64,000 bases of DNA from Vicinamibacterales bacterium (GCA_965262925.1 CBDHGC010000004.1:2385112-2449111); one strand, 5' to 3'; positions 1 to 23,571 are shown, counted from the stretch's first letter. The notes: generated by a model from the letters alone, not told the origin. Translations and numbers: made by a program.

Positions 1-297
1 GTCGCCTTCGACGGCTGCGATTGCCAGCGTTTGCGTGATTTCGCGTGCCGCCTGCTCCTGCGCCCCGTACGAGTCGGTTCCGCAGTCGTCGGCCGGCTCG
101 AAGTACCCGAGCATCAGCGCGTCTCGCACCGTGCTCACGCTCGTTTCGTGCGCTCTCGTCACCACGATTTCGACGTCGTCGATCATGACCTCGTCGGGCG
201 GTCCGTCAAAGACAAAGTCGGTGTCCGGGCGCAACTCCTTGGCCGCGTGGCCCTCGCTCGTTCCGCTTCCGTCGAACGTTCGGTGTCTGTTGACCAT
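1..297 (-). CDS. hypothetical protein, 3' end off the left window edge
   Basis: ATG at 295-297 (minus) opens a frame with no stop down to position 1 (MVNRHRTFDGSGTSEGHAAKELRPDTDFVFDGPPDEVMIDDVEIVV...). Third positions are G/C-rich. It is absent from the ORF track because it has no stop inside the window. Confidence 0.4.
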   Translation of the reverse strand, partial: MVNRHRTFDGSGTSEGHAAKELRPDTDFVFDGPPDEVMIDDVEIVVTRAHETSVSTVRDALMLGYFEPADDCGTDSYGAQEQAAREITQTLAIAAVEGD

Positions 298-356
298 CTG
301 TGTCTTGTCGTTTTCTCGTCGTACTGTTCGGACGCGGCTGCGCCTCGCTTCGCGCC

Positions 357-380
357 GAAACCGCAACGCGTTGCGGTTTC
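357..380. repeat. REP-like palindrome copy 1 (GAAACCGCAACGCGTTGCGGTTTC)
   Basis: Perfect 24-nt palindrome containing the 16-nt core CCGCAACGCGTTGCGG that recurs 9 times in the window. Confidence 0.85.
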
Positions 381-548
381 GGCGGCTCTCCGCACGCTTC
401 GGCGTGTCGTGCGGTTGTCGCGGTCGTGCTGGTGGCCCGACGTCGTGCGGTCGCGTTCGCGCGTTGCGCGTGCCGTTCCTGCGGTTGTCAGGAGCTTGCT
501 GGCCTGCCGGTGTCTTGTTGCGCCGCTCGATGTGCTCGGCGTTCCTCG

Positions 549-1160
549 TCAACCACGTCCAGACGTGTTCGTGCCAGGAGTGCTTGTACTCGCTTCTGGT
601 GGCCCTGCAGTTGATCGTCGGCGGCTTTCGCCGGAGCACCGCGTTGCCTTCGACGGTTTCGCCTTCGTCTTGACGATCATTGGGCAGAACTGGCTCTCGT
701 CCCGGGACCAGTGCATTTGCCCTGCGGCGCGCAGGACCGTCGCCCCGCCACCGAACGTGACCGCGTACACGGTTCCGAACCGTTCGATCAGCGTCTCGTA
801 CGCCGCTTGCGGCGGTCGCTTCTTCGTCACCGCCAGCCACTCGTTGGCGATGCGTTGGCCTCGTGCCGCAACGTCGATGCATCGACCGGCTTCGTGCGAC
901 AGGAGCGCGCGTTCCTCTCGCTGTTCCCAGCTCGACTTGGCGTGTCTCTTCAGCAGCTCCGTGGCGCGCCGGCGCAGCAGCTGCGCGACCAGCTCGGCGC
1001 TGCCGATCATCCCGGACAGCATCGGCATCGCGTCGTCGTCTTCGACGAGTTCTCCGATGATCGCGGTCCGCACCGTTACGGTGTCGTCCGGCCACACGCA
1101 CGCGGAATGGATCGCGTCCGGTGTGCGCCAGTCGTACCGGTTCGTCATTTTCATCTCCAC
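549..1160 (-). CDS. hypothetical protein, apparently frame-broken near 615-632
   Basis: Track ORF (MEMKMTNRYDWRTPDAIHSACVWPDD...). G/C third-position bias is good until about 630. The bias then continues in the adjacent minus frame (KPPTINCRATRSEYKHSWHEHVWTWLTRNAEHIERRNK), which stays open to the window edge. This gene is last in the SSB-clamp gene string. Confidence 0.5.
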   Translation of the reverse strand: MEMKMTNRYDWRTPDAIHSACVWPDDTVTVRTAIIGELVEDDDAMPMLSGMIGSAELVAQLLRRRATELLKRHAKSSWEQREERALLSHEAGRCIDVAARGQRIANEWLAVTKKRPPQAAYETLIERFGTVYAVTFGGGATVLRAAGQMHWSRDESQFCPMIVKTKAKPSKATRCSGESRRRSTAGPPEASTSTPGTNTSGRG

Positions 1161-1200
1161 GTATTCTTCGTTTTCTGTATTTGGGTGTCGCCCGGTCTTC

Positions 1201-2034
1201 TCAGTCGAGGTGCGGGTCTCGTCCGTCCAGCCTCGACGTCATGATCAGGAAGCGCTCGCTCCCTTCGTCGTTTTCCATTCGCAGGGGCATGTCGAATCGC
1301 GCGACCGTCAACACGCTGGTCTCCCCGGTCATCGTGCGCAGCGTGTCCATCAGTAGCGGGTGCCGGATCCCGAAGACGATCGCGTTGTCCGCGTTCTCGT
1401 CTCCTGGCGCCACTCGTCCGCCCTTGTCGTCGCTGTCGCGCAGCTCGCGCTCGAGCGTTCCCCAGATTCGCAGCGCATCCCGGCTGCTCTCCATCCGGCA
1501 TACCCGGTGGTAGTTGTGCACGCCCTTGTAGGGTCCGTTCTTGCGTACCATCTCGAGCGCTTCGCGCCGGTTCATCCGGATTACGTGCGGCGCCAGGATC
1601 GCCTGGTTTCCGCCGTCGATCAGCCGTTCGAACGTGTCGAGCGGGTACGTGGTCGCCGCGGGCCATTCGGCCGCCTCGGTCGTTTCCTCGCCGATGTGCA
1701 CGATGGGTCCGTAGCTGTCCTTCACCGTCCGGCGGCTGATGCGCACGGTTGGCGCTCGCATGGTTCGCGCGAGTCTCTTGATTCCCTCGATTGGGAGTGC
1801 GACGTCGAACAGCTCTTTGTCGCTGTCGCGCGTTGCGCCTTTCAGCACTACCTGGGCCAGGCGTGCTCCCTCGGTCGCCAGCAGCTCCGGCTGCTCGGCC
1901 CCTGGGCGCCATATCAGTCGGCACCCGACCATTCGCGTCGCCACGCGTACGACCGCCTCGGCGATCCGCATGCCTTCCCGCAGCCGTCGGCTGGCCTGGC
2001 CCTGAAACGTCAGCGTCGCTTCGATGTCGCTCAT
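1201..2034 (-). CDS. DnaN-like sliding-clamp paralog 1 (short, about 278 aa)
   Basis: Internal ATG at 2034 overlaps the stop of the upstream gene (ATGA). The N-terminal part has a clamp-like L-L-A-T-E-G-A-R-L segment. The C-terminus (AIVFGIRHPLLMDTLRTMTGETSVLTVARFDMPLRMENDEGSERFLIMTSRL) matches the DnaN domain III ending (...GFNxxYLxDxL...YxxMPMRL). The 452-aa track ORF has an Arg-rich N-terminal extension that I reject. Confidence 0.65.
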   Translation of the reverse strand: MSDIEATLTFQGQASRRLREGMRIAEAVVRVATRMVGCRLIWRPGAEQPELLATEGARLAQVVLKGATRDSDKELFDVALPIEGIKRLARTMRAPTVRISRRTVKDSYGPIVHIGEETTEAAEWPAATTYPLDTFERLIDGGNQAILAPHVIRMNRREALEMVRKNGPYKGVHNYHRVCRMESSRDALRIWGTLERELRDSDDKGGRVAPGDENADNAIVFGIRHPLLMDTLRTMTGETSVLTVARFDMPLRMENDEGSERFLIMTSRLDGRDPHLD

Positions 2035-2774
2035 TCGCTCAGCCTGTACGGCATCAGCACGTAGTGCTCCGAGCCGTCTGTCGACGCGATGTGGACCGAC
2101 CTGTCCGGCCCCTTGAGCGTCATCACTGCTTCGGTTCCGCTGATGCTGCGCAGCGTCTCGACCAGCATCTGGTGGCTCACTCCGATCGTCACCGGCCGCT
2201 TGCACCCGATCACTCCCCTGGAGATCAGTGCGCCCGGGCCGTCGTCGGCCGCGGCGCTGGCGCGTTGGCTCTGCCAGACGTGCACCCCGTCGCGCCTTAC
2301 GAGCAGCCGGCAGGCGCGGTCCGGGTTCACCTCGCCCGGCCGGGGGTGCCATTGCCCGATCTTCCTGATGGCCGCGGCCGTCTCGATTCCTGCAGTCACC
2401 GTTCCCGCTGCTTCCGTCTTCCGCCAGCGCCGGAACGTGCTTCCGATCCAGGTTCGGGCGGGCTCCTGGCGCTGCGTCGTCCTCTCGGTTGCGTACTCGA
2501 TGTCGAGCACGGCGCATTCCCCGTGCTTTCCGATTCGGATGCGGCGTGGCGCCGTGCACGTGGCGATCGTCCGTACGGTCGCCAGCGAGATCGCCAGCTC
2601 GAAGTCCTCCACCGGCGTCGGCTTGCCCAGCGGGAGCCGGACCTCAGCTATCCGTCTGCCGTCACCTGCGGACAGCATCGCGTTCGGTTCGCCCGCGGTC
2701 GCCACCAGCTGGCACGCCGGTCCGGCGCTGCAGCGGCGCTCCTGCGTTTGCAGGATTCGGCGGGCCGCCGTCAT
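2031..2774 (-). CDS. DnaN-like sliding-clamp paralog 2 (short)
   Basis: C-terminus TIGVSHQMLVETLRSISGTEAVMTLKGPDRSVHIASTDGSEHYVLMPYRL resembles the DnaN C-terminal motif. Homology to the N-terminus of paralog 3 (PDGAVVFDDIARLKHAMTAARR) extends upstream of the annotated ATG, where no start codon exists. See the finding on the 2829 junction. Confidence 0.6.
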   Translation of the reverse strand: MTAARRILQTQERRCSAGPACQLVATAGEPNAMLSAGDGRRIAEVRLPLGKPTPVEDFELAISLATVRTIATCTAPRRIRIGKHGECAVLDIEYATERTTQRQEPARTWIGSTFRRWRKTEAAGTVTAGIETAAAIRKIGQWHPRPGEVNPDRACRLLVRRDGVHVWQSQRASAAADDGPGALISRGVIGCKRPVTIGVSHQMLVETLRSISGTEAVMTLKGPDRSVHIASTDGSEHYVLMPYRLSE

Positions 2775-3747
2775 CGCGTGCTTGAGTCTCGCGATGTCGT
2801 CGAATACGACTGCTCCGTCTGGTGCTGCACTCCTTCCACCGCTGGGTCTCGTCGGCGTCCACCGTGTGTGGCTCCACCTTGGTCTTCCCGTCGTCGCTCG
2901 CGGATGTGGTCTCGTGCTTCCCGTTGCCGTTCGGTCGCGGATTGCTGAGCGCGAACGCGCTGATCACGTACCGTTCTCCGCCGCTGGTTGCGCCCATGTG
3001 GATCGGTTTGCGCGGGTCCTCGATCACCATCCAGACGGTTGACCCCGTCATCGTGCGCAGCGTCTCCACGACGTGCCGGTGCCGCATCCCGAAGACCATG
3101 CGTTTGCCGAATCGTGCGACTCTGTCGGCGACCTTTCGTCCCGGCTCGGTCTCTTCCACAGCCGGCTCGTGCGTCGTCGGCCATACCCGCAGTCCGTCCT
3201 GCGCGATCTCGAAGCGGCAGATCCCGTCCGGGTTGTACTCGTCTCCTGTCGGCGCGCTTGCGTGCAGTGTCTTCAGCGCCTCGGTGCGCGGCATCTCGGC
3301 TACTGCCGCGTACGGTGGCTCCTGCTCGATGATCCGGTTGTCTTCGCGTCCGAAGGCGACCACGCACCCGTCGCCGTTGCGGCCGATGCGCACCATCGTG
3401 GTCTGTCGCGCGTTGGCGATCGTCCGTACAGCTTCGAGCGGCATCGCTACGTCGAACTCCTGCTCGATCGACGATTCGCGAATCGGCGTAACGTCGACCA
3501 CGCACAGCCGGTGACCGTCGGTTGCCATGATCTCGGCCGTATGCTGCCCCTTGCGCGAGATCACCCGGCATGCGGCGTCCGCGCGTGCCGACGGCTCGTG
3601 CGTCCGCAGCACCGTTCGTGCTGCCTTCATTGCCTTCTTCAGGCGGGCCACGTTCGCGAAGACCAGCTCGCCGTCCGGGGCTGCCGCCTTCCACGCGCTT
3701 GCGTGTTGCGGCTTTGCGGTCGCCCGTTGTTCTGCTTCTGGATGCAC
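2662..3747 (-). CDS. DnaN-like sliding-clamp paralog 3
   Basis: Contains IMATDGHRLCVVDV (the DnaN ATDGHRLA motif) and a DnaN-like C-terminal block VFGMRHRHVVETLRTMTGSTVWMVIEDPRKPIHMGATSGGERYVISAFAL. The last ~60 codons (below about 2830) lose codon bias and overlap paralog 2, so the real C-terminus is probably earlier or continues in another frame. Confidence 0.65.
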   Translation of the reverse strand: MHPEAEQRATAKPQHASAWKAAAPDGELVFANVARLKKAMKAARTVLRTHEPSARADAACRVISRKGQHTAEIMATDGHRLCVVDVTPIRESSIEQEFDVAMPLEAVRTIANARQTTMVRIGRNGDGCVVAFGREDNRIIEQEPPYAAVAEMPRTEALKTLHASAPTGDEYNPDGICRFEIAQDGLRVWPTTHEPAVEETEPGRKVADRVARFGKRMVFGMRHRHVVETLRTMTGSTVWMVIEDPRKPIHMGATSGGERYVISAFALSNPRPNGNGKHETTSASDDGKTKVEPHTVDADETQRWKECSTRRSSRIRRHRETQARDDGGPPNPANAGAPLQRRTGVPAGGDRGRTERDAVRR

Positions 3748-3951
3748 CTGTAGCTCCCTGGCCGCATCTGCGGCTCGTTCGTGCGACTCTCGGTGTCCGG
3801 CGTCGTCGATTGCGCCCGGGGCGTGTTGCCGCGGTCGCTCGGTGTGAGCGTCTTGTGACGTTGCTCAGGTGGGCCGGTCCGGCGGACGGGGTGCTTGCTT
3901 ATCGCCGTACTCGAGCTGGGTCGGTCCGGCGGACGGGATGCTTGCTTGCAA

Positions 3952-3967
3952 CCGCAACGCGTTGCGC
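3952..3967. repeat. REP-like palindrome copy 2
   Basis: CCGCAACGCGTTGCGC (15/16 match to core) in the SSB-clamp intergenic region. Confidence 0.8.
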
Positions 3968-4011
3968 TTTCTGACCGCGCTGCCGCGCGTCAGAACGTAC
4001 CGTGGTACTCG

Positions 4012-4629
4012 CTAGAACGGAACGTCATCCTCGATGAGGTCGGTCTGCTGTGGTGGTGCAGCGCGCCACGGTTCGCCGAGATCGTCGTCGGCCGGCGGTT
4101 GCGCGTGCTCGTCGAGCGGGGTCTCGTTCCGGTAGTCGGCGGCTTCGTCCACTCGGCTGTGGTCGTAGCCACCGCCGCCCTGGTTGTCCTGCGCCGGCGG
4201 GTTCTCCTGGTCCGCGATCAGCTTGCCGATCTTGGGGAACGGCTTGCGGTCGATCGCGTCGGCGTGCATCTCGTAGCTCTCGCGCAGGTTGCCGTCGCGC
4301 CCTTCCCAGACGTCGATCAGGAGCAGACCCGCCACGTGCACGCGGTCCTTGTTCTGGAACTCGTTGAGGACGTCGGCCAGCTCGTTGAACGCCTTCACGC
4401 GGATGAACGCCGGCGTGTCGCGCTCCATCTTCTGCCGGCCGTCGTACAGCCCGACCAGGAGCGTCGCTTCCGTCCACGGCGTTCCCTGCTGGGAGTACCG
4501 CTTGACGGGTCCGTCCTTGACGATTCGTCCTTCGATGATCGCCGACCCGAGCCGGAACGTTCCCTTTGTCGCCTTCTGGCGCTGGTTTCCGCGTTGTCCG
4601 CGGCCCTGTCCCTGCTGGTTGTCTCTCAT
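4012..4629 (-). CDS. ssb: single-stranded DNA-binding protein
   Basis: N-terminal OB-fold-like region (GRIVKDGPVKRYSQQGTPWTEATLLVGLYD...FIRVKAFNELADV), a Gly/Gln/Pro-rich linker, and the acidic tail ending DLIEDDVPF, which is the canonical SSB C-terminal DDD-I/V-PF tip. Confidence 0.9.
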   Translation of the reverse strand: MRDNQQGQGRGQRGNQRQKATKGTFRLGSAIIEGRIVKDGPVKRYSQQGTPWTEATLLVGLYDGRQKMERDTPAFIRVKAFNELADVLNEFQNKDRVHVAGLLLIDVWEGRDGNLRESYEMHADAIDRKPFPKIGKLIADQENPPAQDNQGGGGYDHSRVDEAADYRNETPLDEHAQPPADDDLGEPWRAAPPQQTDLIEDDVPF

Positions 4630-5268
4630 CCTTCAGTCTCCTGGGTAGCCCGAAGCGTAGCGGACGAAACTTACGCGCAAGGCCGCCTCGGCGCCTCCTT
4701 GCGTTGCTTTGTTCCGGCGCCTGTGGCGCCCTCTCGTTGTTCGGTGCGCGCGTAGCGCGGTTGGCGTGGAAAATCGTTCGCGCAGCGAACCTGGCTCGGC
4801 CGGCGGTCCCGGTCGGATGCAGCCGTTCACTTGTTCCATTCTCTCATTCTCCGCTCCCCTCCCGTGGTCCGTCTTCTGTTGCCGGGCCGCGTCTGCGTGG
4901 CCCGGCTGGTCCGCAGGACCGTCGCTTTTCTCCTGTTTCGCGCGGTTCCACCGTGCGTTGTCGTTTGGTCGGGGTCCCCGCTACCCGTCTTCGGGGGCTC
5001 TCGTACGTAGACTCTGCCGACCGGCGCAGCCGGTTCCGTCTCTTGCGGAACGCTCGTGCCGCCCTGGAGGTCCCCGTCGTGTCTGCCCAAGCCGAAGCGA
5101 AAGCGGAAGCCCGTGAGTTTTCCGACGTCTGGGGTGAGTTCATCCACTCGGGTCGCTGGTACCGCGGGATCACCTTGTTTCTGACCCTTGCAACCTCGTT
5201 CAGCTCGTCATCATCGCTATCGTGGTCACTCGTCCGGACTCTCTTCCTCTCGTCGTGCGCGTCGATGA

Positions 5269-5757
5269 GGTCGGCCGCGCCGAGGTGGTGGATTATCAGC
5301 TCGACCGGGCGAGCTGGATCAGAACAGCCCCGTCGTCGGCTTCTTTCTGAATCAGTTCGTCGTCGATCACTACTCGCGCCGGCATGCGCTGCGCGCCGAG
5401 CGGTGGGAGCGTTCGCTGCTCTTTCTGACTCCGGATCTGCAGCAGTCCGCGTACGATCGCGACGTCGAGTCCCTCAGCGCGTTTCTTGCGTCGACCGAGG
5501 CGTCCGAGCTGTTGATTCAGGACATCGTCGTCCGCGTGATTCCGCAGCCGCAGCCGCCGTACCGTGCGGAGGTGCTGTTCGATCGGGTCGAGATTTACGG
5601 CACCTCCGAGATCTCGCGTGAACAGATGACGCTGTCGGTTCAGTTCCTCTTCGCCGAGGACATTCCGTCGGAAGCGTTGCTGATCAATCCCCTCGGTCTC
5701 GTGGTCATCTTCATGGACGTGCAGCGCCAGCTCATCGGCGTCGGAGACCTCCGCTAG
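5269..5757 (+). CDS. hypothetical protein; frame open from 5269 but first canonical start is TTG at 5512
   Basis: Strong G/C third-position bias in this plus frame (…FFLNQFVVDHYSRRHALRAERWERSLLFLTPDLQQSAYDRDVESLSAFLASTEASELLIQDIVVRVIPQPQ…). The antisense 164-aa track ORF is a shadow. The stop TAG (5755-5757) lies inside the CTAG target of the adjacent IS. Confidence 0.35.
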   Translation, partial: GRPRRGGGLSARPGELDQNSPVVGFFLNQFVVDHYSRRHALRAERWERSLLFLTPDLQQSAYDRDVESLSAFLASTEASELLIQDIVVRVIPQPQPPYRAEVLFDRVEIYGTSEISREQMTLSVQFLFAEDIPSEALLINPLGLVVIFMDVQRQLIGVGDLR

Positions 5758-7359
5758 GAGTCTGCGCCGCAGGAGATTTGCGGCACGCAACGGGTCGCCG
5801 GCACACGACCTGAGTCACGTGTCGGGGCGACTTCGCCGGTCGGCAGGGCGGGGTGGATTTTCGGTAGTTGGCGAACAGATGACAAAATTCGGTCCTCGCG
5901 GGCCGTATGGCCCGCCAGAGACCGCGATGCGCGTCGATTTGTCGCCGTTGTGAGCCTCAGATCCCGCCTTCTACGCCGCCATCAGCGGCTGCAGGCGCTT
6001 GACGTTCAACGCCAGGCACACCAGGTCCCACTCGCACCGCACCTTCGCCAGCCCACGCAGGCTGAAGCGCCGAAACCCCAGCACGTGCTTGATCCAGCCG
6101 TTGGGAGCCTCCGACAACCACTTGCGCTCCGCATACGCCGTCCGGCCCGCCGGCGTCGCCAGCTTCTCCACCATGCGACCCGTCGCCGGATGGGCCTTCA
6201 GATCGCGGGTAGCCGTCTGCTTGCCCTCCCGGCCCGGCGCCACATACCCGTCAATGCTCCGCTTTTCCAGGTCCGTCAGGTCCCGCTCGTTGCAGTACCC
6301 CGCATCGGCCAGCACCGTCTCCGGCTGCGCGGCGAACGTCTCCTTTACCGCGTCGAGCAACACCGGCAACTCACCCTGGTCGCTCGCGTTCGCCGTCAGG
6401 TCCGTCGCCACCACCAACTGGTGCTCCGCGTCCACCGTCACCTGCGCGTTGTAGCACTGCTGGAATCCCTCGTTGCTCGTCTTCATGATCGAGCTTTCCG
6501 GGTCCGTGAAGTTGCTCTGCGCTTTCTCGTCCGGCTCGCCATACGCCCGCTTGTACGGCTGACCGCCCTTCGGGTTCCGATCCTGCCCCGGCTGCCGACC
6601 CCGCGCGGCGTCCGCCGACCGAGCCGCCGCTTCCAGACGCGCCTTCGCTTCCCGGATCGCCGCCAGACGCTCTTCTCGCCGACGCAACTCCGCCGGCAGA
6701 TCATCGCCCCGAACCTCCGCGCCCAAGCGCGCGTCCTCGGCCTCGTCAACCGCATCCGCCTGACGCAACAGCGCCTCGATCTCGCTTTCCAGGCGCTGTT
6801 CCTCTTCCTGCATCCGGTCGTAGCTCATCGCCTTGCGCTTGCTCGCGTTCGCGCGCACCTTCGTCCCGTCGATCGACAGCTTCCCCAAGCGCGCCAGACC
6901 CAACTCCTGCGCCAGACGGACCACCTCCACGAACAGCGCCTGGAAATCCTCCAGGTGCCGACGCCGAAACTCGCACAGCGTCCGGTGTTGCGGAAAGTTG
7001 CCCGCCGCCAGCACCCGGAAACCAACGTCCTCTTCCAGCTTCCGAGCGACCCGGCGCGACGAGAACACCCCCGTCGCGTAGGCATAGAGCAGCACCTTCA
7101 CCATCATCCGAGGCTCGTACGGCGCGTTGCGACGGCCGTCCCCCTCGTACAGAGCGTAGAACGCCGTCAAATCCAGACCGTCCACCAGATCGCTGACATG
7201 GTGCGCCAAGTGGCCCTCCGGCAGCCACTCCCGAACGTCGGGCGGCAACAGCAGCGACTGGTCAGGCACATAGGGGCGGAATGTGGTCGACATCGAGTCC
7301 TTCCGTCGTCGGCTCGCCTACAATTGTCGCATCTGTTTTTCTGCGGCGCAGACTCCTAG
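5753..7359 (-). mobile_element. IS5/IS1182-superfamily insertion sequence (about 1.6 kb) flanked by CTAG
   Basis: Terminal inverted repeats: CTAGGAGTCTGCGCCGCAG at 5753-5771 and its exact reverse complement CTGCGGCGCAGACTCCTAG at 7341-7359. The outer CTAG on each side is consistent with a 4-bp target duplication. The element encloses one transposase ORF. Confidence 0.85.
5971..7293 (-). CDS. DDE transposase, IS5/IS1182-like
   Basis: N-terminal InsH-type motif (FRPYVPDQSLLLPPDVREWLPEGHLAHHVSDLVDGLDL), a coiled-coil middle, and a C-terminal DDE_Tnp_1-like region (VLADAGYCNE...WIKHVLGFRRFSLRGLAKVRCEWDLVCLALNVKRL). Confidence 0.9.
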   Translation of the reverse strand: MSTTFRPYVPDQSLLLPPDVREWLPEGHLAHHVSDLVDGLDLTAFYALYEGDGRRNAPYEPRMMVKVLLYAYATGVFSSRRVARKLEEDVGFRVLAAGNFPQHRTLCEFRRRHLEDFQALFVEVVRLAQELGLARLGKLSIDGTKVRANASKRKAMSYDRMQEEEQRLESEIEALLRQADAVDEAEDARLGAEVRGDDLPAELRRREERLAAIREAKARLEAAARSADAARGRQPGQDRNPKGGQPYKRAYGEPDEKAQSNFTDPESSIMKTSNEGFQQCYNAQVTVDAEHQLVVATDLTANASDQGELPVLLDAVKETFAAQPETVLADAGYCNERDLTDLEKRSIDGYVAPGREGKQTATRDLKAHPATGRMVEKLATPAGRTAYAERKWLSEAPNGWIKHVLGFRRFSLRGLAKVRCEWDLVCLALNVKRLQPLMAA

Positions 7360-7366
7360 GACCTCG

Positions 7367-8023
7367 ATGCCAGTGGCAGCGACCGCGGACTACCTCGACC
7401 CGGCGCGCCGGCCTCAGCCGGTTGCGCCGGGGTCGGTCGCCGGGTTGCTCGCGCTCTGCGATAACGGCATCTCGACGTCTCAAGCCCAGTTCGCTGCCTT
7501 CGTCATGTCCACCGGTGGCGTCTTCACCGGCCCGCAGGCCGAGGTCTGGCTCGATGCGTGTGTTCCTGGGTGGAGTCCGGATTCGGCGGCGAACGTTCGT
7601 CGGGATTACCGTACCAAGTTCCTTCGTCCGCTCTTCCATCCCCGTTTTCGGGGTGGCAAGTGGAGCGCGCTTACCTCGGCGCAGGTATCGCGGTCATCGA
7701 TGTCGAGCTGGCCGCGGCTGCCGGTCTCGGGCTTTTGTGCCTGCACGGCGAGTGGCTTGAGAACGAGATCTTTCTCGCTGAGTGTTATCCCCAGGACCGC
7801 TTCGACGTCTTCCGCGCTCGTGCCCCTCACCTGTTCGAGGGTGTCAATCCGGTCCTGGTCGACTCCGACGCGGAGCCTCGCTGATTTCCCTCTTCACTGT
7901 GCGTGTTCTCGACGGTCCCCGTTGGCCCTCGCTCGTCTGATTCTCTGTTCGCGTCCTTGTGGGCCTTCGCGGTCCCTCCCTCCTCGCACTCGGTCCGCGA
8001 TCGCGCTCTTCCTTGCTGATTGA
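7367..8023 (+). CDS. hypothetical protein (extent uncertain)
   Basis: ATG at 7367, immediately after the IS end. Codon bias is good only to about 7690 (MPVAATADYLDPARRPQPVAPGSVAGLLALCDNGISTSQAQFAAFVMSTGGVFTGPQAEVWLDACVPGWSPD...). A convergent minus ORF (7606-7830) competes for the remainder. Confidence 0.3.
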   Translation: MPVAATADYLDPARRPQPVAPGSVAGLLALCDNGISTSQAQFAAFVMSTGGVFTGPQAEVWLDACVPGWSPDSAANVRRDYRTKFLRPLFHPRFRGGKWSALTSAQVSRSSMSSWPRLPVSGFCACTASGLRTRSFSLSVIPRTASTSSALVPLTCSRVSIRSWSTPTRSLADFPLHCACSRRSPLALARLILCSRPCGPSRSLPPRTRSAIALFLAD

Positions 8024-8074
8024 AGCGCTCCCTTCAGATCTGTCGCGTCGTGCTGCGGCTCGGTCCTCGCTCGC

Positions 8075-8710
8075 TTGGCGACGTGGCTCGAGTTCTTCGT
8101 TCGTGTTCTCGTCAAGACCGTTACGCTTGGTCCACCGCTCGCTCTAGCGTTGACTGTTGTGCCCTCTCCTTGGAGTGCCTCTCATGCCCTCGTTGCCTCC
8201 TGGCGAGCCCTCTTCTCTCCTGGTGCTGCGGCTGCGACTCCTCCTGCCGTAGGTGCCGCTCGTTCCGACGAGTACGAGCGTGCCGGTGTTCACGTTCATT
8301 GTGATGCGTTCGTCGACCCGGCCGCGGTGCTCGAATCCGGAGTCACCGTTGGGTCTCGCGCGGTTGTGTGTGCCGGCGTGACGTTGCGCCAGAACTCGCG
8401 AGTTTCTGCGCACGCCGTTCTCGAGCCGGACGTCGTTGTCGGCTCCGACGCTCGCGTCGGTCATGGTGCTCGGCTTGCGCCAGGTGCCGTTGTCGAACGT
8501 GCCGCCGTCGTCGGTCCTCGTACCGTTCTCGGTGCTGGTGCAGTTGTTCGCGCGGATGCGCGTCTCGGTCGCACCGTCACCGTGGGTGACGGTGCGCAGG
8601 TTGGTCGTGGAGCCTTGGTCTCTTCTGGTTCTGCTCTCGGCGACGGCTCATTTGTCGGTCACGGTGCTGTCCTTCGGGAAGGTGTTGATCTCGCCAGCGG
8701 CGTTCAGGTG
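8075..8710 (+). pseudogene. hexapeptide-repeat (left-handed beta-helix) protein, 3' truncated by IS21
   Basis: Repeating [LIV]-G-x-x-x-x periodicity (VGSRAVVCAGVTLRQNSRVSAHAVLEPDVVVGSDARVGHGARLAPGAVVERAAVVGPRTVLGAGAVVRADARLGRTVTVGDGAQVGRGALV...). The frame runs straight into the IS21 terminal repeats at about 8710. Confidence 0.5.
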
Positions 8711-8853
8711 TGGGTATTCCGGAGGAAGTGGAACACGGAATCCGGAGGAAGTGGAACATCGATTCCGGAGGAAGTGGAACAGCGGTTCCGGAGGTCGTGA
8801 ACGCTCGTCGGTAGCTTGACCCGGCATGCTCTTGCCCTTTCGACAGGAGGGGC

Positions 8854-10422
8854 GTGGCGATGCCGGCACGGAGGCTGCTGATGAGGAAGATCCGCGAGGT
8901 TTTACGACTCAAGCACGAGCAAGGACTGTCCCACCAGGCGGTGGCGCAGGCGTGCGCCGTCGGCGTGGGGACGGTCAATCGCTATCTGCAGAGGGCGGCG
9001 CAACGTGGGCTCGGCTGGCCGTTGCCGGCCGATTTGGACGACGCGGCGCTCGAGGCTCGATTGTTTCCACGCGCCGCGCCGGTGCACGACCGGATCCGGC
9101 CCGACTGCGCGTACATCCACCGCGAGCTCAAGCGCGACAGCGTCACGCTGCAGTTGCTGTGGGAGGAGTACGCGCAAATCCATCCGGACGGCTACGGCCG
9201 CACCCAGTTCTGCGAGATCTACCGGCAATGGACGCGGCGGCTGCGGCCGTCGATGCGGCAGGTGCACCGCGCCGGCGAGAAGACGTTCATCGACTATTCC
9301 GGCAAGCGGCCGAGCCTGGTCGACCGGCGCACGGGTGAGCTCCGACGCGTCGAGCTGTTCGTCGCCGTGCTCGGCGCCAGCAGCCTCACCTACGCCGCGG
9401 CGACCGAGACCCAGCAGTTGCCGGACTGGATCGACGCGCATATCCGCATGGTGGAGTACTTCGGCGGCGCTACCACGTTGTGGGTCCCCGACCAGCTCAA
9501 GAGCGCCATCACCCGCCCCTGCCGCTACGAGCCCGGCGTCAACCGCACCTACGAGGACCTGGCCACCCACTACGGCGCCGTCGTCGTTCCGGCGCGACCG
9601 AGGAAACCTCGGGATAAGGCTGCTGTGGAGAATTGTGTACTCATCGCACAGCGGTGGATACTCGCCCGCCTCCGCGACCAGACCTTCTTCGAGCTCGGCC
9701 CGTTGAACGCCGCGATCCGCGTCCTGCTCGACGAGCTCAACGACCGGCCGATGAAGAAGCTGGGCGTCAGCCGCCGCGCCCTCTACGAGCAGGTCGACCG
9801 GCCGGCGCTCCGGTCCCTGCCGACCGCGCGCTACGTCCTGGCGCACTGGAAGCTGTGCCGCGCCAACATCGACTACCACGTCGAGGTCGAGCGCCACGTC
9901 TATAGCGTGCCGTTCCAGCTGGTCCGCGAGCAGGTCGAGGTCCGCTACACCACGAACACGGTCGAGATCTTCTATCGCGGCAAGCGACTGACGTCGCACC
10001 GGCGGCGCTACGACGGGCAGCCGTCCACCCATCGCGAGCACATGCCGAGCGCCCACCGCGCGCATGCCGAGTGGACGCCGTCGCGGCTGATCCGTTGGGC
10101 CGAGCAGGCCGGACCGGCGACCGGACAGCTCGTCGCCCAGATCATCGAGCGTCGCCCGCACCCGGAGCAAGGGTATCGAGCCTGCCTGGGGATCATGCGC
10201 CTGGGACAGCAGTACGGGAACGACCGGCTCGACGCGGCGAGCGCTCGCGCGATGGCACTCGGCTCCTACCGCTATCGCACCGTCAAGAACATTCTCGCCG
10301 CCGGCCAGGACCGTCTGCCTCTGGAGCCGGCGGCCGAGACGACCCCGACGCCCACGCACACCAACATCCGCGGCGCCGACTACTACGCCGCGGCCACGAC
10401 CGAGGAGGAGGACCGATGCTGA
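8854..10422 (+). CDS. istA: IS21-family transposase IstA
   Basis: N-terminal HTH (IREVLRLKHEQGLSHQAVAQACAVGVGTVNRYL), a DDE core (FIDYSGKRP...WVPDQLKSAI...) and a characteristic C-terminal region. The stop overlaps the istB start. Confidence 0.9.
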   Translation: MAMPARRLLMRKIREVLRLKHEQGLSHQAVAQACAVGVGTVNRYLQRAAQRGLGWPLPADLDDAALEARLFPRAAPVHDRIRPDCAYIHRELKRDSVTLQLLWEEYAQIHPDGYGRTQFCEIYRQWTRRLRPSMRQVHRAGEKTFIDYSGKRPSLVDRRTGELRRVELFVAVLGASSLTYAAATETQQLPDWIDAHIRMVEYFGGATTLWVPDQLKSAITRPCRYEPGVNRTYEDLATHYGAVVVPARPRKPRDKAAVENCVLIAQRWILARLRDQTFFELGPLNAAIRVLLDELNDRPMKKLGVSRRALYEQVDRPALRSLPTARYVLAHWKLCRANIDYHVEVERHVYSVPFQLVREQVEVRYTTNTVEIFYRGKRLTSHRRRYDGQPSTHREHMPSAHRAHAEWTPSRLIRWAEQAGPATGQLVAQIIERRPHPEQGYRACLGIMRLGQQYGNDRLDAASARAMALGSYRYRTVKNILAAGQDRLPLEPAAETTPTPTHTNIRGADYYAAATTEEEDRC

Positions 10423-11174
10423 TCGAACAGACCGTCGACAAACTCAACGCCATGAAGCTGGGCGCGATGGCCGACGCCGTCCAGCAACAACTGCAGAGCG
10501 GCGAGGCCGCCACGCTCGGCTTCGAGGAGCGTTTCGGCCTGCTGGTCGACGCCGAGTGGACGGCCCGCGAACAGCGCAAGCTGCAACGGCGCCTGCAGAC
10601 GGCCAAGCTGCGTCATCCGGCGACGCTCGAGGCCGTCGACTTCACGCCTGCCCGACGGCTCAACCGCCAGCAGGTCCTGACGCTGGGAACCTGCGCGTGG
10701 CTCGCCGAGCGCCACAACTTGATCGTCACCGGGCCGTGTGGAATCGGGAAGAGTTTTCTCTGTTGCGCCTTCGTCGAACGGGCGTGTCGCCGCGGCTTCA
10801 CCGCCCGCTACGTCCGCATGCCGCGCCTGTTGCACGAGGTGGCCGTCGGCCGCGGAGACGGTTCCTACACGCGGCTGATGGCGCGGCTGGCAAAGCTCGA
10901 CCTGCTCGCCATCGACGACTGGATGCTCGCGCCGTTGCGTGACGCCGAGCGCCGCGACCTGACCGAGGTGATCGAGGACCGCGCCGAACGCGCCTCCACG
11001 CTGATCGCCAGCCAGTTGCCGGTGACCGACTGGCACGCCGTCATCGGTGACCCCAACCAGGCCGACGCCATCTGCGACCGCCTGCTCCACGACGCGCACC
11101 GCATCGAGCTGAAGGGCCGCTCGATGCGACGTACGCACGACGCGCCGAACAACCGCCCGAAGGAGACGACATGA
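10416..11174 (+). CDS. istB: IS21-family ATP-binding helper IstB
   Basis: ATG at 10416 overlaps the istA stop. Walker A GPCGIGKSFL, Walker B LLAIDDW, and a TLIASQLPVTDWH motif. The upstream part of the 367-aa track ORF is rejected. Confidence 0.9.
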   Translation: MLIEQTVDKLNAMKLGAMADAVQQQLQSGEAATLGFEERFGLLVDAEWTAREQRKLQRRLQTAKLRHPATLEAVDFTPARRLNRQQVLTLGTCAWLAERHNLIVTGPCGIGKSFLCCAFVERACRRGFTARYVRMPRLLHEVAVGRGDGSYTRLMARLAKLDLLAIDDWMLAPLRDAERRDLTEVIEDRAERASTLIASQLPVTDWHAVIGDPNQADAICDRLLHDAHRIELKGRSMRRTHDAPNNRPKETT

Positions 11175-15273: not shown

Positions 15274-15775
15274 TACGCGGACTTGTGCGCCCGCTCAGGC
15301 GGTTGGGTGTCGCTACCGCTGCTCGATCCGGATGAACGCCGAGCCCATCCGCTGTTCGAGCGGCCGGCATCGTGCCGCGTCGAAGTCGAGCAGGTGTTCG
15401 GGGTCGATGCCCATTGCTACCGCGCTGGGGCGCGACCACTCTGATCGCGTCGCTCTGCCTGACCATCGTCGTTGCCTGCGCCGCCGCGGTCGGCGGCATC
15501 GCCCCTTCCTGCGCCGGGTCGGGTCTTGCCGGACGGCGTCCGCCGACGATTGCCCTTCCAAACGCGTTGCGCCGCGGCTTCCGGTCCCGGAGCCCGCTAC
15601 CGCCTGGCGTCGGGGACCTTGAGCGCCGGAGTTCCTACAGGGCCGAGACCGAAGTTGACGGAACGTCCGCTATCAGACCCACCGGACACCGAGGCCCTCC
15701 GCGACCTCTGGGAAACCGACCTCGTGATCGAGGACGCGATCGCAAAGGCTTCGCACCGTTGCCCTGGTTTTAATT

Positions 15776-15940
15776 GAGGCTGAGTTTACCCAGCCGGTCG
15801 AGACGCCGCTCTACCAGTCGATCGCGACGCGGGTCGCGGCGATGCGCGACCGCGGCGACAGTGTCAGCGCGATCGCGAAGGATTTCGCGGTAGACCACCA
15901 TACGGTCGACAAGGCTCTGCGCTGGTTCCGGTCGCGGTGA
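15776..15940 (+). pseudogene. resolvase-type HTH domain fragment (copy 1)
   Basis: EAEFTQPVETPLYQSIATRVAAMRDRGDSVSAIAKDFAVDHHTVDKALRWFRSR*. This is a helix-turn-helix tail with no N-terminal catalytic part. It is convergent with the autotransporter stop and part of the repeat shared with 23376-23540. Confidence 0.4.
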
Positions 15941-15971
15941 CCGCGGGTTGGTTCGTTGGTGAGGGTGTCGA

Positions 15972-15987
15972 CCGCAACGCGTTGCGC
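15972..15987. repeat. REP-like palindrome copy 3
   Basis: CCGCAACGCGTTGCGC, lying between the convergent HTH fragment and the autotransporter stop. This is a plausible bidirectional terminator position. Confidence 0.8.
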
Positions 15988-16068
15988 TCCCGTCGGACCG
16001 GGCCCCGGCTGTCCGGTTTGCCGAGGCCCGGTCCTGGTTTGCTCAGTGGTCAACGTCGTGGCCGTCGG

Positions 16069-19000
16069 CTACCACTGCACGGTGGCGCGCCCGAGCACGC
16101 GCTGGTCGGTGCTTCCGCCCTGCTCCTGCATTTGGAACAGCGGGCTCTCGCGCCGTTCGGCGTCTACGCCGAGCTGCAGGTTCAGCTTGCCCTGCTCGAG
16201 CACCTGCATGCCGTAGCCGATCCGGTAGTCGCGGCCGTACTCGGATGTGCGGACGCCGGCCCGCGGCGTCCCGACGAATCTGCTGCCGATCGGCATCCCG
16301 TAGCCGACTTCAGTGTCGAGACGCTGGCCACCGCCGTTCATCAAGGGGTCGTTGCCCATGCCGGCCATGCTCTTGCGGCCCCACAGCGCTTCGGCGCCGC
16401 TCATTGCGTCGCCGCCCCAGGCGGGGGAGACGCGTGCCGTGAAGCCGAGCGGCGTGCTCGGCGTCGGGTTGTAGCTGACCGAGATTGACATCCCGCTCTC
16501 GGCGAATCCTTCGGCCTGGTGGACGAGGAGTCTCCGCACGCGGATGTCGACCGCAAGCCCCGTCACGCCGTCGGCGAGTACGAGGCCGGCCCCGAGGTCC
16601 ATGCCGCGCCCGGTTTCGGCGTCACCGCCGTCCTGGCGGATGCCGATCTCGATGCTCGGCGTCAGCGCCATCCGGCTGGCGATCGTCATGCTCTGCGAGC
16701 CCTCGAGCGCGGTGCGCAGCCGGCTCACCGCCGCGGTGGTCGAGTCGAGGTTGCCGCCCGGCCCGCTTACGGCCTTCGTTCGCATTCCGACCCATAGCGT
16801 GTCCGCCTTGAACGCGAGGCCGAAGCCTTTGCCGCCGCCGAGGATCTGGCCGCGGCCGCCCCCGGCCGCCATCGCCATCGACAGCCCGGTCTCGATCGGT
16901 GCTCCAGCGCCCGGGTTGAGCATCAGGCCGCCAGCGCCGTAGCCGGCGACGGTCCAGACGGTGACCCGCTCGCTGGCCTTGTATCCGATCCAGGGGTAAA
17001 GGCCGGTCACCGCCGAGTTGACCTGTCCGCTGTCGACGCCGGCGTACCTTCCGAGCCCCCGGCTGTGGGACAGTGACACGCCGGTGACCATCCGGCCCTT
17101 GGCGTAGTCGGCGCCGAACATCGAGGTCCGGACGTCGCCGTTGAGCGCGAGGGCGCCGTCCTGGCCGTAGAAGCTGGACTGTGCGCTGCGGCTCCAGAAG
17201 GAGAGGATCCCGCCGCTCGACGTCGCGCGGTTGAGCGCGAAGCTCGAGCCCTGCAGCAGGCGGTCGCCGCCGAGGCCCATCCCCATCCCGTGGTTGTAGG
17301 ATTCGCTTGGGTGCAACCCCTGCATGCTCGCGCTCGGGTTCATCGCGTCGCCGATGCCGTTCTGCGATCCGAGGCTCGATGTCATGCCGCTGTTGCCGAA
17401 CCGCGGGTCGTTCCCTCCTGCGGCCGTCATCTGCCGGCCCGGTTGGCCCTGCTGCTGCCCGTATCCACCGCCGAGCTGCTGCAGGAAGTCGAGCGCGAAC
17501 TGCTGCCCCATGTCGCTGTTGATCTCCCGGCCGGCGACCCGGCCGTCGAATCCTGGTGCTCGGGGCGCGTTCACGCGCTCCTCGACCTGCTCGACGATGT
17601 GCACCGCCGCGGTGCGGCCGAACCGGGCGATCAGCGCGCTGGGCAACGCGTCGTGGTTCGTGATGGTCCCGGTGGCGCTCGAGTTGGTCAGGTCGCCGCT
17701 TGAGGCGTTCGACAGCGTGAGCGTGAACGCTTCGCTGCCCTCGTTGTGTTCGTCGTCGAGTACGGCTACCTCGATGGTTGCCGATGAGCTTCCCGCGTCG
17801 ATCGTCAGCGTGTCGCTGGTCGACGTGTAGTCAGCGCCAGCCGTCGCGGTTCCGTCGCTTGTTGCGTAGTCGACCGTTATCTGGCTGCTGGCCGCGCGGC
17901 TGAGCGCGACTGCGAACACCAGCACCGCGTTGGCGCCCTCTTCCACCTCGGCGTCGGTAATCGAGATCCCGACTGGTCCGAGGATTGTGTCCGACGTCGA
18001 GTGGCTCAGCTTGCGTCCGTCGTCCGTGCAGATGGCGCCTGAGTTGCCGCAGTTGGTCGTTTCCGGCAGCGTGATGGTGATCGCGCCGTTGTCGTCTGGA
18101 TCGACCGTCACGGTCCAGTACTGGTTGCTGCCTTGGGTCTTCCGTTCGGCCTTTCGGATGTCCGCCCCGGTCTCGTCGAACGCGTGGTCACGGATCCGTG
18201 CGTAGCCGGCGCTGACGTTCTCGCTGAAGCTCAGATCGAAGGTGAACTCGCTGCCGTTGTGCTCGGCGGGCATGTTGCTGAAGCTCGCCGTCACTGGGAC
18301 GGTCGATACGTCCGGCGGTCCGGCGACCGTGGTAGAGGGGCTGTTGCTCAGCTGTACCGGGTCCTCCTCCTTGCTGCAGATTGCGCCCGTCGTTCCGCAA
18401 TCGCGGTTGCCCGGGAGCGTGACCGTGACGGCGTCGTTTCCCGACGGCGTGACGGTGATTTCCCAGCTGTCGTTCTGCCCGTTGTTGCGGCGGGCGCGGG
18501 TCACGTCGCCGTTCGTGACCGTGAATGCGTGGTCGCGCATCGCCGCGTAGCCGATTGCGATCTCGCTGTTGAAGACGGCGTCGAAGCTGAACGCCGTGCT
18601 GCCGTCGTGCTCGGCCGGTACGTTCTCGAAGCTGCCGGTCAGGACCTCTGTGTTGAGGATGGTGCCCGTTGCGGTGTCGTCGCCCAGGTCGGCGCCAATA
18701 GCCTCGTACAGCAATACGTCGAATGTCTCGCCGCTGTCGTTCACGGTGTCGTCGATGATCGGAACGGAGATGATCTTGCTGGTCTCCCCGGGCTGGAACA
18801 CCAGGGTTCCCGCTTGGTGTTGGTAGTCCACCCCGGGTGTTGCCGATACGGTGAACAGCGTGAGGTAGTCGACGGTTATCGTCCTGCTCCAGCTTCTGCT
18901 CAGCGAGACGACGAAGTCCGCCGTCGCGTCGGTGCCCTCGGTCGCCGTGGCGTCGCTGATCGAGATCAGCACTTCGGGGTTGCTGGTCCCCTCGACCTTG

Positions 19001-19713
19001 ATCCTTGCTGCAGCGTAGGTTTCCGTGTACGCGCTGGCCGTCGTTCCGTCCGGGTGGACGAACCCTGAGTCTCCGATCGACCACCCTGCCGCCCGGCCGG
19101 CGTCTTCGTTGAGTCCGGTGTGTGCCAATATTGCCCTGGACGTTGCGGACCCTGCCCATATGTAGACCCAATACTGGGTCCCCGGGTTCAGATGAACGGG
19201 CGCGGGCCTCGGACAACAGTGATTGTTCGCCCTCGCCGTCAAGTACTTGTTGACCCCGGTCGTAGGGGGCGCGAAGTTGACTCCAGCCTTCGTCAGAACG
19301 GCGACTTGCCTGCTGTGATTGGGTAGACCGTTGTTGTCCTCATAGAGGTACACGTACACCGGATCGCCTGGGCTTGTGGTGCGTGATCCATGCTGAAAGT
19401 CGATGGAGATCGATTCCAGGATGTACCCGGTGCCGTTGGTTCCTGTCGTGAACGGCATCGCGTAGCTCTGTCCAGCCAAACTCTCGTCAATACCCGTGCG
19501 TATTTGCCCAAGGTTGCTTACCAACACGTCGGCCGTGGCCGGTGCCGCCATCCCCATGACCACGACGAACATTGCGATCGCCGTCATCAGCCTTGCGGTA
19601 CACCCTGCCTGCTGGGTGCCCGTCGGCCTCCGCTTGCCGATCCATCCGCTTCTGCGTTCCGCTCTGTCCCCGTCGCGGCTCGTGCCGCGTAGTTGGGTTT
19701 TTTCTGCTTCCAT
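16069..19713 (-). CDS. type Va autotransporter with Calx-beta passenger (paralog A, 1214 aa)
   Basis: ATG at 19713 is preceded by GGAGG. Signal-like segment LMTAIAMFVVVMGMAAPATA. Two Calx-beta-like units (…VDYxTxxGTATAGxDY…) flank two ~110-aa FENVPAEHDG modules. The C-terminal ~280 aa is a beta-barrel pattern ending RVLGRATVQW. The 1522-aa track ORF overlaps the LysR gene in another frame and is trimmed. Confidence 0.85.
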   Translation of the reverse strand: MEAEKTQLRGTSRDGDRAERRSGWIGKRRPTGTQQAGCTARLMTAIAMFVVVMGMAAPATADVLVSNLGQIRTGIDESLAGQSYAMPFTTGTNGTGYILESISIDFQHGSRTTSPGDPVYVYLYEDNNGLPNHSRQVAVLTKAGVNFAPPTTGVNKYLTARANNHCCPRPAPVHLNPGTQYWVYIWAGSATSRAILAHTGLNEDAGRAAGWSIGDSGFVHPDGTTASAYTETYAAARIKVEGTSNPEVLISISDATATEGTDATADFVVSLSRSWSRTITVDYLTLFTVSATPGVDYQHQAGTLVFQPGETSKIISVPIIDDTVNDSGETFDVLLYEAIGADLGDDTATGTILNTEVLTGSFENVPAEHDGSTAFSFDAVFNSEIAIGYAAMRDHAFTVTNGDVTRARRNNGQNDSWEITVTPSGNDAVTVTLPGNRDCGTTGAICSKEEDPVQLSNSPSTTVAGPPDVSTVPVTASFSNMPAEHNGSEFTFDLSFSENVSAGYARIRDHAFDETGADIRKAERKTQGSNQYWTVTVDPDDNGAITITLPETTNCGNSGAICTDDGRKLSHSTSDTILGPVGISITDAEVEEGANAVLVFAVALSRAASSQITVDYATSDGTATAGADYTSTSDTLTIDAGSSSATIEVAVLDDEHNEGSEAFTLTLSNASSGDLTNSSATGTITNHDALPSALIARFGRTAAVHIVEQVEERVNAPRAPGFDGRVAGREINSDMGQQFALDFLQQLGGGYGQQQGQPGRQMTAAGGNDPRFGNSGMTSSLGSQNGIGDAMNPSASMQGLHPSESYNHGMGMGLGGDRLLQGSSFALNRATSSGGILSFWSRSAQSSFYGQDGALALNGDVRTSMFGADYAKGRMVTGVSLSHSRGLGRYAGVDSGQVNSAVTGLYPWIGYKASERVTVWTVAGYGAGGLMLNPGAGAPIETGLSMAMAAGGGRGQILGGGKGFGLAFKADTLWVGMRTKAVSGPGGNLDSTTAAVSRLRTALEGSQSMTIASRMALTPSIEIGIRQDGGDAETGRGMDLGAGLVLADGVTGLAVDIRVRRLLVHQAEGFAESGMSISVSYNPTPSTPLGFTARVSPAWGGDAMSGAEALWGRKSMAGMGNDPLMNGGGQRLDTEVGYGMPIGSRFVGTPRAGVRTSEYGRDYRIGYGMQVLEQGKLNLQLGVDAERRESPLFQMQEQGGSTDQRVLGRATVQW

Positions 19714-19964
19714 GCTGTGCCTCCGTCTTGCCTCTGGTTGTTTCCACGTCTGGCGTTTGTAGCTTCGCCCCTCGTGGTTGGTTTCCTCTTTCCCGGCCCT
19801 GCGGTCGGGCTCGGTTTCGTGCTCTCTGCTGGGTCCCCCTCGTGTTTTTGGTTTCCTCCAGGTTCGGCGCCCTTTAGATGCGCCCCTCGTAGTTGCTCCT
19901 GTGTTCGACGGTCTTGTGCTCCGAAACCGTGTCGTGTCCTTTGCGCGGTGGGCGGATCGCTCCC

Positions 19965-20954: not shown

Positions 20955-21391
20955 CCGTTCTCCTCGCTGAACAGCGTTGTCGGGTTCCGGCCGTGAGGGG
21001 TGGCGCCGCTGGCGCCAGACGCTTGGCGGTTCTCGGACGTGTTTCTGCTGACATGCCGCCGAACGTGTGCGTGCCGCTGGCAGGCCATCGTGAACGTCTG
21101 AAGCTGTGGGGGCATTATCCGAGTGACCCGCGTCCTCTCGCAACCACATATTCTCGTAGTCTCAGACCACAAACGTTCGTGGGCTGCTGCGTTCTACTTG
21201 TTACTTCGAAGCTAATCTCGTCTCGGGATCGGGCACACCGGGAGCTTCCTGCTGCGCTGAGTTCGTTGGGTCCGACGAAGTGGTGGCAGGCGAGTTTCGA
21301 CTTCCGCCTGCGTTGGTCCGGGCGTTCTCGCGCGGGCGCGTCGGCGCTGCTGGTCTGTTTAGGCGTTCAGGCGTCGCCCGCGTTCGAGCAC

Positions 21392-23540: not shown

Positions 23541-23571
23541 CCGCGGGTTGGCTCGTTGGTGAGGCTGTCGA

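Follow-up and report, generated by a model that had tools for sequence, protein, structure and literature searches.

Two-domain derivatives of the sliding clamp DnaN encoded beside an ssb gene in Vicinamibacterales, and the possibility of an asymmetric clamp ring

A 64,000-nucleotide stretch of a Vicinamibacterales genome (GCA_965262925.1 CBDHGC010000004.1:2385112-2449111; hereafter the window) carries, on its minus strand and downstream of a gene for single-stranded DNA-binding protein (SSB), three units resembling the bacterial sliding clamp DnaN, numbered here 3, 2 and 1 in the order in which they follow the SSB gene. Their presence raises the question of whether they are pieces of one ordinary clamp gene or clamp proteins in their own right and, if the latter, what kind of ring they might build. 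The two-domain clamps PCNA and phage T4 gp45 trimerise; all described bacterial sliding clamps are, to our knowledge, homodimers of a three-domain protein, and we know of two-domain trimeric and heterotrimeric clamps only from archaea, eukaryotes and some viruses. A first-pass annotation of the window, made from the sequence alone, had read the locus as three genes for roughly two-domain DnaN derivatives that could form a heterotrimeric ring. The analysis described here upholds the two-domain assignment, revises the gene layout, and leads us to favour, tentatively, a ring composed of one fused and one single chain.

The relationship of the units to DnaN is evident from sequence profiles. The unit profile matches the beta clamps of the PDB (E=1.7e-5), with its positions 49–117 aligning with residues 161–229 of E. 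coli DnaN (domain II) and its positions 185–275 with residues 281–366 (domain III). Unit 3 matches the phage DnaN family phrog_947 (E=2.8e-10) over positions 131–359 of the 368 in that profile, as does P0008, an intact relative described below (E=1.7e-13). The curated DnaN model TIGR00663 gives sub-threshold matches in the same registers as the PDB beta-clamp match, to unit 3 (E=3.4e-4; residues 68–116 on profile positions 163–209) and to unit 2 (residues 194–245 on profile positions 315–367); sub-threshold matches to DNA_pol3_beta_2 or DNA_pol3_beta_3 (E>=0.011) are seen in 7 of 33 family members. Together with the exhaustive search described below, the PDB and phrog_947 matches bear out the annotated succession of three minus-strand DnaN-like units after the SSB gene.

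The motifs of the units point in the same direction. The ATDGHRL motif ascribed to unit 3 is present, and all three units share a G-x-x-x-x-L-x-x-T-L-R block (VFG(I/M)RH..L..TLRTMTG or a variant). The annotation had extended this shared C-terminal block to a terminal MP/TxRL, which holds for unit 2 (...LMPYRL) and unit 1 (...IMTSRL) only; unit 3 instead ends ...YVISAFAL. The best conserved motifs of the clamp units are ATDGxR and the C-terminal hydrophobic-MPxRL, which line the peptide-binding cleft in E. coli beta-clamp structures. Pairwise identity among the three units is 23–33%, in line with the distant similarity first noted. The ratio of nonsynonymous to synonymous substitution rates (dN/dS) is 0.18–0.33 for every unit, for the SSB gene and for the downstream gene (compared among the window, L002 and P0008), which indicates purifying selection; as first proposed, the divergence is old.

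An AlphaFold2 model of unit 1, computed from a 33-sequence alignment, has two clamp-type domain repeats and was predicted with high confidence (predicted local distance difference test score, pLDDT, 90.8; predicted template modelling score, pTM, 0.89). A Foldseek search of the PDB with this model gave 445 matches at E<=0.001, of which the best 50 are all beta clamps (E ~3e-12; query-normalised TM score, TMq, 0.70–0.74; target-normalised TM score, TMt, ~0.55), with TM scores indicating that two of the three DnaN domains are covered by the model. Among viral models, phage DnaN ranks first and viral PCNAs lie lower (TMq 0.55–0.63). The four helices at the positions of the clamp channel helices are positively charged in each of the 32 members scored, their net charge averaging +8 per unit (range +5 to +13) and that of the remainder of the protein -2; these basic, channel-type helices of the predicted fold fit a DNA-facing channel. 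The profile and AlphaFold2/Foldseek comparisons agree, and show each unit, at the level of sequence and modelled structure, to be a two-domain DnaN derivative that has kept domains II and III and lost domain I.

The same alignments deal with the most prosaic account of the locus, namely that the units are pieces of one ordinary three-domain dnaN gene split by frameshifts, a finding that the first-pass annotation had named as fatal to its own proposal. A real frame disruption is indeed present between units 3 and 2. Nevertheless, the units align with one another end to end, each covers the identical II+III region of DnaN, and none corresponds to domain I; moreover, the intact relatives are two-unit fusions and single units of 245–300 aa under purifying selection. 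Since every unit spans the II+III region, we regard a shattered dnaN as excluded for practical purposes.

The layout of the genes differs from that first described. The three units occur together in the window, in L002 (a related element, 78–88% identical in DNA, on a 7.15-Mb circular metagenome contig) and in the loci L005/L015. In relatives, units 3 and 2 form a single open reading frame (ORF), as in P0007 (588 aa; L002) and P0008 (576 aa), which are 64% identical to each other and join their two units by a low-complexity linker of ~40 aa; unit 2 of the window is 66% identical to the C-terminal half of P0008. P0008 is recorded on a contig equal in length (8,544,143 bases) to that bearing the window ORFs P0005 and P0006, but is not itself encoded in the window, and we infer that it represents a second locus in the window's own genome. 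At ~2829–2835 the DNA alignment shows 7 nt in the window against 6 nt in L002, i.e. one extra base. As a consequence of this 1-nt indel, which splits the fused gene, single-gene models of units 3 and 2 are wrong: the frame of unit 3 stays open as far as a stop at 2662, a 361-aa ORF that is out of frame past the linker disruption, whilst in the frame of unit 2, downstream of a stop at 2966, no ATG, GTG or TTG precedes the ATG at 2774, which falls within helix 1. The peptide AAPDGAVVFDDIARLKHA encoded ahead of this ATG in a three-frame translation aligns with the N-terminus of unit 3, AAPDGELVFANVARLKKA. Thus the description of three genes of 250–280 codons each does not survive. The reported stop-start overlap of units 2 and 1 does, as ATGA at 2031–2034, and the 4-nt overlap of the single unit with the stop of the fusion recurs in L002 and L005/L015. 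Because units 3 and 2 form one ORF in relatives, sequence comparison shows the native layout to be two genes, one for a two-unit fusion (~580 aa, four domains) and one for a single unit (277 aa, two domains).

Programmed frameshifting at the unit 3/2 junction was considered and rejected; the +1 shift would occur at AAG GAG T GCA, where no codon is slippery or allows re-pairing, and there is no other start codon close enough to serve. A sequencing error may still account for the disruption; against this, its state is identical in four assemblies (the window, L003, L004 and L015), including a paralogous copy, whereas two frameshifts in the nearby VirB8-like gene vary between assemblies. Compared with P0007, P0008 and P0010, unit 3 also has an 18-aa in-frame deletion at ~3340, at the end of the first domain; the downstream partner gene is frameshifted near 665, and the secretion genes of the window are cut by insertion sequences (IS). 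Given these lesions and the frameshift in the fusion, the window's copy of the clamp module is probably no longer functional. The features of the locus are collected in Table 1.

Table 1. Coordinates (window numbering) of the clamp module and of the genes flanking it.
Feature	Position	Strand	Remarks
SSB gene	4012..4629	-	205 aa; Q/R/G-rich N-terminus, OB fold, acidic tip ...IEDDVPF
SSB-clamp intergenic elements	3870..3970	.	palindrome and two repeat copies
Clamp unit 3	2947..3747	-	N-terminal unit of natively fused gene; GTG start at 3747; ATDGHRL
Inter-unit linker, low-complexity	2829..2946	-	frame disruption at ~2829-2835
Clamp unit 2	2031..2828	-	C-terminal unit of fused gene; +1 frame relative to unit 3; ends ...HYVLMPYRLSE
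Clamp unit 1	1201..2034	-	277 aa, intact; identical to P0001
Downstream partner gene	517..1160	-	200-250 aa in relatives; window ORF of 203 aa at 549-1160
Fragment related to GHKL-type ATPases	1..255	-	tblastn, 71% identity; runs off window edge
VirB8-like gene	5079..5754	+	divergent from SSB gene; in three frames; tblastn with L002 VirB8 (PF04335)
IS transposase	5971..7293	-	440 aa; interrupts secretion operon; L003 counterpart matches DUF772, DDE_Tnp_1, DDE_Tnp_1_6
Next secretion-operon gene, fragment	7367..7693	+	first 108 aa of 357 aa (L002); tblastn, 85% identity

An exhaustive HMMER search of 1.84 billion representatives with the unit profile finds 59 proteins, among them ~40 single-unit proteins of roughly 270 aa (245–300 aa), two fusions, and four ordinary DnaN proteins of 368–393 aa that are matched over their last two domains (E 7e-6 to 3e-4). 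On the basis of these matches, the clamp units belong to a small unannotated family, which has no name in any source examined. A query built on four single-unit members traced three family members to metagenome-assembled genomes (MAGs) of Vicinamibacterales (Acidobacteriota); narrower queries for the unit-1 group gave no match in the genome collection. No member was recovered from JGI metagenomes, IMG/VR, PLSDB plasmids or GenBank phages. Nearly identical DNA was not found in the plasmid and phage collections searched, a protein-level search with P0008 gave no match, and the clamp proteins match none of the PADLOC defence models.

A neighbour-joining tree sets the two-domain family, as a monophyletic group, apart from DnaN domains II+III; units 3 and 2 are sister clades beside the solitary P0010, and unit 1 groups with the solitary P0004. 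Solitary members are surrounded by genes for transposases, a relaxase, AbiEii, HNH and ParB-like proteins and methyltransferases, and three of their loci lie in Vicinamibacterales MAGs. Many solitary members (P0012–P0041) begin with a conserved M-(Q/E)-T-x-T followed by ~20 low-complexity residues, an N-terminus that the window units do not have.

A composite arrangement occurs at ~5900–11731 of L005 and L015. In it, a near-identical copy of the window's SSB gene, of units 3 and 2 and of the initial 58 codons of unit 1 is joined to a VirB8 remnant, a remnant of an SSB tail and the intact P0008 fusion. The sequence of the composite points to recombination between two related elements.

What assembly the units form has to be judged from their domain count, their genetic arrangement and their setting, which, as the neighbouring genes described below suggest, is best explained as the DNA-processing module of an integrated conjugative element of the type IV secretion type. 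The products of the module would be the SSB, the DnaN-derived clamp proteins and a conserved partner protein. One fused chain and one single chain would close a six-domain ring, a pseudo-heterotrimer, in which the positively charged helices face the DNA. Such a ring might serve as the element's own processivity or tool-belt clamp, acting with the SSB on transferred or replicating element DNA, for example in complementary-strand synthesis after transfer or in rolling-circle replication, and its three non-identical faces could engage different partners, as in archaeal PCNA1/2/3. We favour this pseudo-heterotrimeric clamp because a four-domain and a two-domain chain together supply the six domains of one ring; the main argument for a mixed ring is that each locus has exactly three units. 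A mixed ring of fused and single chains that serves the element's DNA processing is a reading on which we are close to evenly divided, leaning slightly towards doubt. The fuller proposal, of an asymmetric six-domain ring of DnaN-derived chains lacking domain I in an acidobacterial conjugative element, is possible, and we advance it with distinctly greater reserve.

Several observations weigh against the mixed ring. Most members of the family are solitary single-unit genes, including P0004 (nearest unit 1) and P0010 (nearest units 2 and 3), each of which is alone within 10 kb on either side; since most members are solitary, the fold does not depend on heteromeric assembly. Within 10 kb, neither a clamp loader gene nor a polymerase gene was seen. 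The units do not reach the curated DnaN cut-off, the best TIGR00663 score being 19.7 bits against a threshold of 137.65, and the clamp ORFs of the window have no Pfam match. The AlphaFold2 model of the fused chain has a pTM of 0.45 and a disordered 40-aa linker (pLDDT <50), and this weak model superposes on the single-chain PCNA ring (3k4x) with a root-mean-square deviation (rmsd) of 15 Å and on DnaN across the unit junction with an rmsd of ~12 Å. In the underlying alignment, MAFFT places all single-unit homologues on the N-terminal half, with only four sequences covering the C-terminal half; at a pTM of 0.45 the model is too weak to inform on ring geometry. Lastly, none of the three sampled fused loci has all its components intact; outside the window, an IS splits unit 1 in L002, and in L005/L015 an integrase-bearing insertion cuts it after ~40 codons. 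The module has been under selection through most of its history, and the sampled copies are in decaying, IS-rich elements.

Two other assemblies need to be considered alongside the mixed ring. Each unit type could form its own homotrimeric ring, as solitary members of the family presumably do, with the paralogues serving different clients, in which case the fused protein would build a pair of linked rings or one ring from which further units hang. This arrangement would sit comfortably with solitary single-unit genes being the family rule (~40 clusters), P0004 and P0010 among them, and the flexible 40-aa linker does not force the fused units to be adjacent in one ring. We nevertheless consider it unlikely: each locus has exactly three units (4+2 = 6 domains), in each of the three lineages translation of the single unit is coupled to that of the fusion, and fusion of diverged units is more easily explained if they are neighbours in one assembly. 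Alternatively, the proteins may have the clamp fold without forming a sliding ring, and act as adaptors or decoys that bind host proteins carrying clamp motifs, host DnaN or its loader; this would aid establishment of the element (anti-repair or anti-defence), in the manner of early-expressed ssb-adjacent genes of conjugative plasmids. The conservation of the partner-cleft motifs, the position of the clamp genes beside ssb, in divergent orientation to the secretion genes, the lack of any element-encoded polymerase or loader within 10 kb, and the repeated inactivation of components in chromosomal copies are all compatible with such a role. However, the positive charge on the four channel-type helices in every member suits a ring and would be needless for a decoy, the PADLOC comparison gave no link to known defence or anti-defence models, and no oriT or relaxase of this element was located that would place the genes in its leading region. 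An adaptor or decoy therefore also appears improbable to us.

The SSB gene with which the mixed clamp would act encodes both the OB-fold domain and the acidic C-terminal tip of bacterial SSBs, so the annotated SSB with its ...DDVPF tail is well founded. It matches Pfam PF00436 (E=4.6e-10; 39.9 bits, above the gathering score of 26), TIGR00621 (E=1.6e-9) and phrog_44 (E=6.7e-13), and is 85% identical to the SSB of L002, with a dN/dS of 0.23. The 265-nt spacer between the SSB and clamp genes contains a palindrome, AAAGCGCAACGCGTTGCGGTT, at 3950–3970 that is conserved in L002 and L005, as is the block GCAAGCAAGCATCC..GTCCGCCGGACCGGCCC. It also contains two copies (3917–3947 and 3870–3900) of a ~31-nt repeat, AAGCAAGCAyCCCGTCCGCCGGACCGrCCCA, which itself includes the palindrome GTCCGCCGGAC. 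Judging from their sequences, these elements could be the ssb terminator, operator sites or structured single-strand signals.

Downstream of the clamp units lies the partner gene, homologues of which follow the clamp genes in L001, L002, L005 and L015; in L001 it stands beside the solitary P0004. The protein has an invariant F-C-P and, in relatives, an SWHEH(I/V)WTW motif, and has no match in Pfam, NCBIfam or PHROGs. In the window its C-terminal SWHEHVWTW segment is in another frame, at 517–663. The fragment at the edge of the window corresponds to residues 398–482 of a 626-aa L002 protein, whose full-length gene lies 5 kb further on in L002 (L002:18304–20184). By BLAST clustering, this GHKL-related family of 570–626 aa recurs at L012:4333–6036 and 7187–8896 and at L013:8062–9792; the L012 and L013 members give weak HATPase_c matches and the L002 member gives none. 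A gene of this family immediately precedes the solitary clamp gene in L013, another stands one gene away from that in L012, and the GHKL-related proteins may be functional partners of the clamps.

The conjugative setting becomes apparent from the other side of the SSB gene. In L002, L005 and L015 the SSB gene is divergent from genes for VirB8, TraG/VirD4 and a VirB11-like ATPase, which provide the mating-pore and coupling-protein components expected of an integrative conjugative element. In the window, the only secretion genes left beside the SSB gene are a frame-disrupted VirB8 and a fragment of the next gene. The VirB8-like gene is recovered as three tblastn pieces with 81–97% identity to L002 VirB8; relative to the window, L004 has an extra base at 5311 and L015 one at 5192, and because the two shifts differ between assemblies they may be assembly errors. 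The related single-unit locus L013 has a relaxase; a relaxase, oriT or integrase of the element itself was not located, no dedicated test for them having been made.

Further features of the window were noted in passing. A second VirB8-like ORF (44691–45185, minus strand) is 38% identical to L002 VirB8 and adjoins a gene for a trypsin-like peptidase (43260–44669); this ORF may be a relic of a further element for secretion or conjugation. A segment of ~5 kb containing a LysR regulator and giant Calx-beta repeat proteins is duplicated (15732–21316 and 36169–41519; 92–94% identity), with a third, partial copy at 23332–24847 (86–89% identity). Transposase density is very high, with genes at 5971–7293, 8854–11174, 27037–28548, 47651–48946 and 50156–52003, among which DDE_Tnp_1/DUF772, IS21, two DDE_Tnp_ISAZ013 and another DDE_Tnp_1 are represented; the IS21 label reflects similarity of the 8854–10422 ORF to IS21-type genes in L003 and L010, the ORFs at 8854–11174 not having been scanned directly. 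The left 6 kb of the window has a G+C content of ~65–67%. Positions 1–6000, which contain the minus-strand genes, have an AT skew of ~-0.32 to -0.37, with T exceeding A on the plus strand, and the coding strands there are markedly richer in A than in T.

Comparison with known clamps helps to place the family. DnaN (DNA_pol3_beta, DNA_pol3_beta_2 and DNA_pol3_beta_3; TIGR00663) is the closest: the units are collinear with its domains II and III, and share an ATDGHRL-type motif, a C-terminal ...MPxRL and basic helices at the channel-helix positions. They differ from it in having two domains and 245–300 aa rather than three domains and ~366 aa, so that a homodimer would comprise only four domains, in lying far below the curated family thresholds, and in being carried by a mobile element, with between one and three diverged units of which two are fused. 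On sequence criteria, strict DnaN membership fails on domain number and on these thresholds, and DnaN is the closest family. PCNA and T4 gp45 likewise have two clamp domains per chain and a similar length, and three units would again make six domains; however, the sequence and best structural matches of the units are with bacterial and phage DnaN, and a trimer, established for those proteins, is for the units a proposal only.

The PCNA1/2/3 of Crenarchaeota and the eukaryotic 9-1-1 complex invite comparison with the locus, whose three diverged two-domain paralogues, encoded together, might form an asymmetric ring that offers distinct faces to partners; relatives of unit 1 (P0004) and of units 2 and 3 (P0010) occur alone. 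The window units differ in being bacterial and DnaN-derived, in that two of the three are fused (4+2 domains), and in that no dedicated loader has been identified for them and their assembly is only proposed. With engineered single-chain PCNA (3k4x) the fused protein aligns collinearly across four domains (E=4e-17; 611 aligned columns), the covalent linkage of clamp units being natural in the fused protein; it links only two of the three units, and, as the superposition above indicates, its model lacks ring geometry (rmsd 15 Å; pTM 0.45). The ssb genes of conjugative plasmids and integrative conjugative elements offer a parallel for an element-encoded SSB beside type IV secretion genes, to which the window element adds its own clamp homologues. 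No element described so far is known to us to combine ssb with clamp homologues of its own, and in our literature search we found neither bacterial DnaN homologues with two domains nor clamp genes of conjugative elements described.

The clamp family is real and unusual, but tiny; its 4+2 arrangement is intriguing, and assembly into a ring is a proposal. The domains of DnaN that align with PCNA are II and III (PMC8357120), and the family, as read from its sequences, shows domain loss within the bacterial DnaN lineage. A bacterial family retaining only domains II and III would show that a switch of clamp architecture is possible within one lineage, and would make the question of the ancestral clamp architecture directly testable. 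If the asymmetric ring is correct, no heteromeric sliding clamp would have been known from bacteria before it, and the transition from beta-clamp to PCNA architecture would have a natural example; the fused 4+2 arrangement would make the ring intrinsically asymmetric, which would be useful for studying the allotment of clamp faces to different partners. The module would also be the first case known to us of a conjugative element carrying its own clamp beside its SSB, and would thus bear on the conversion and replication of single-stranded DNA after its transfer to a new host.

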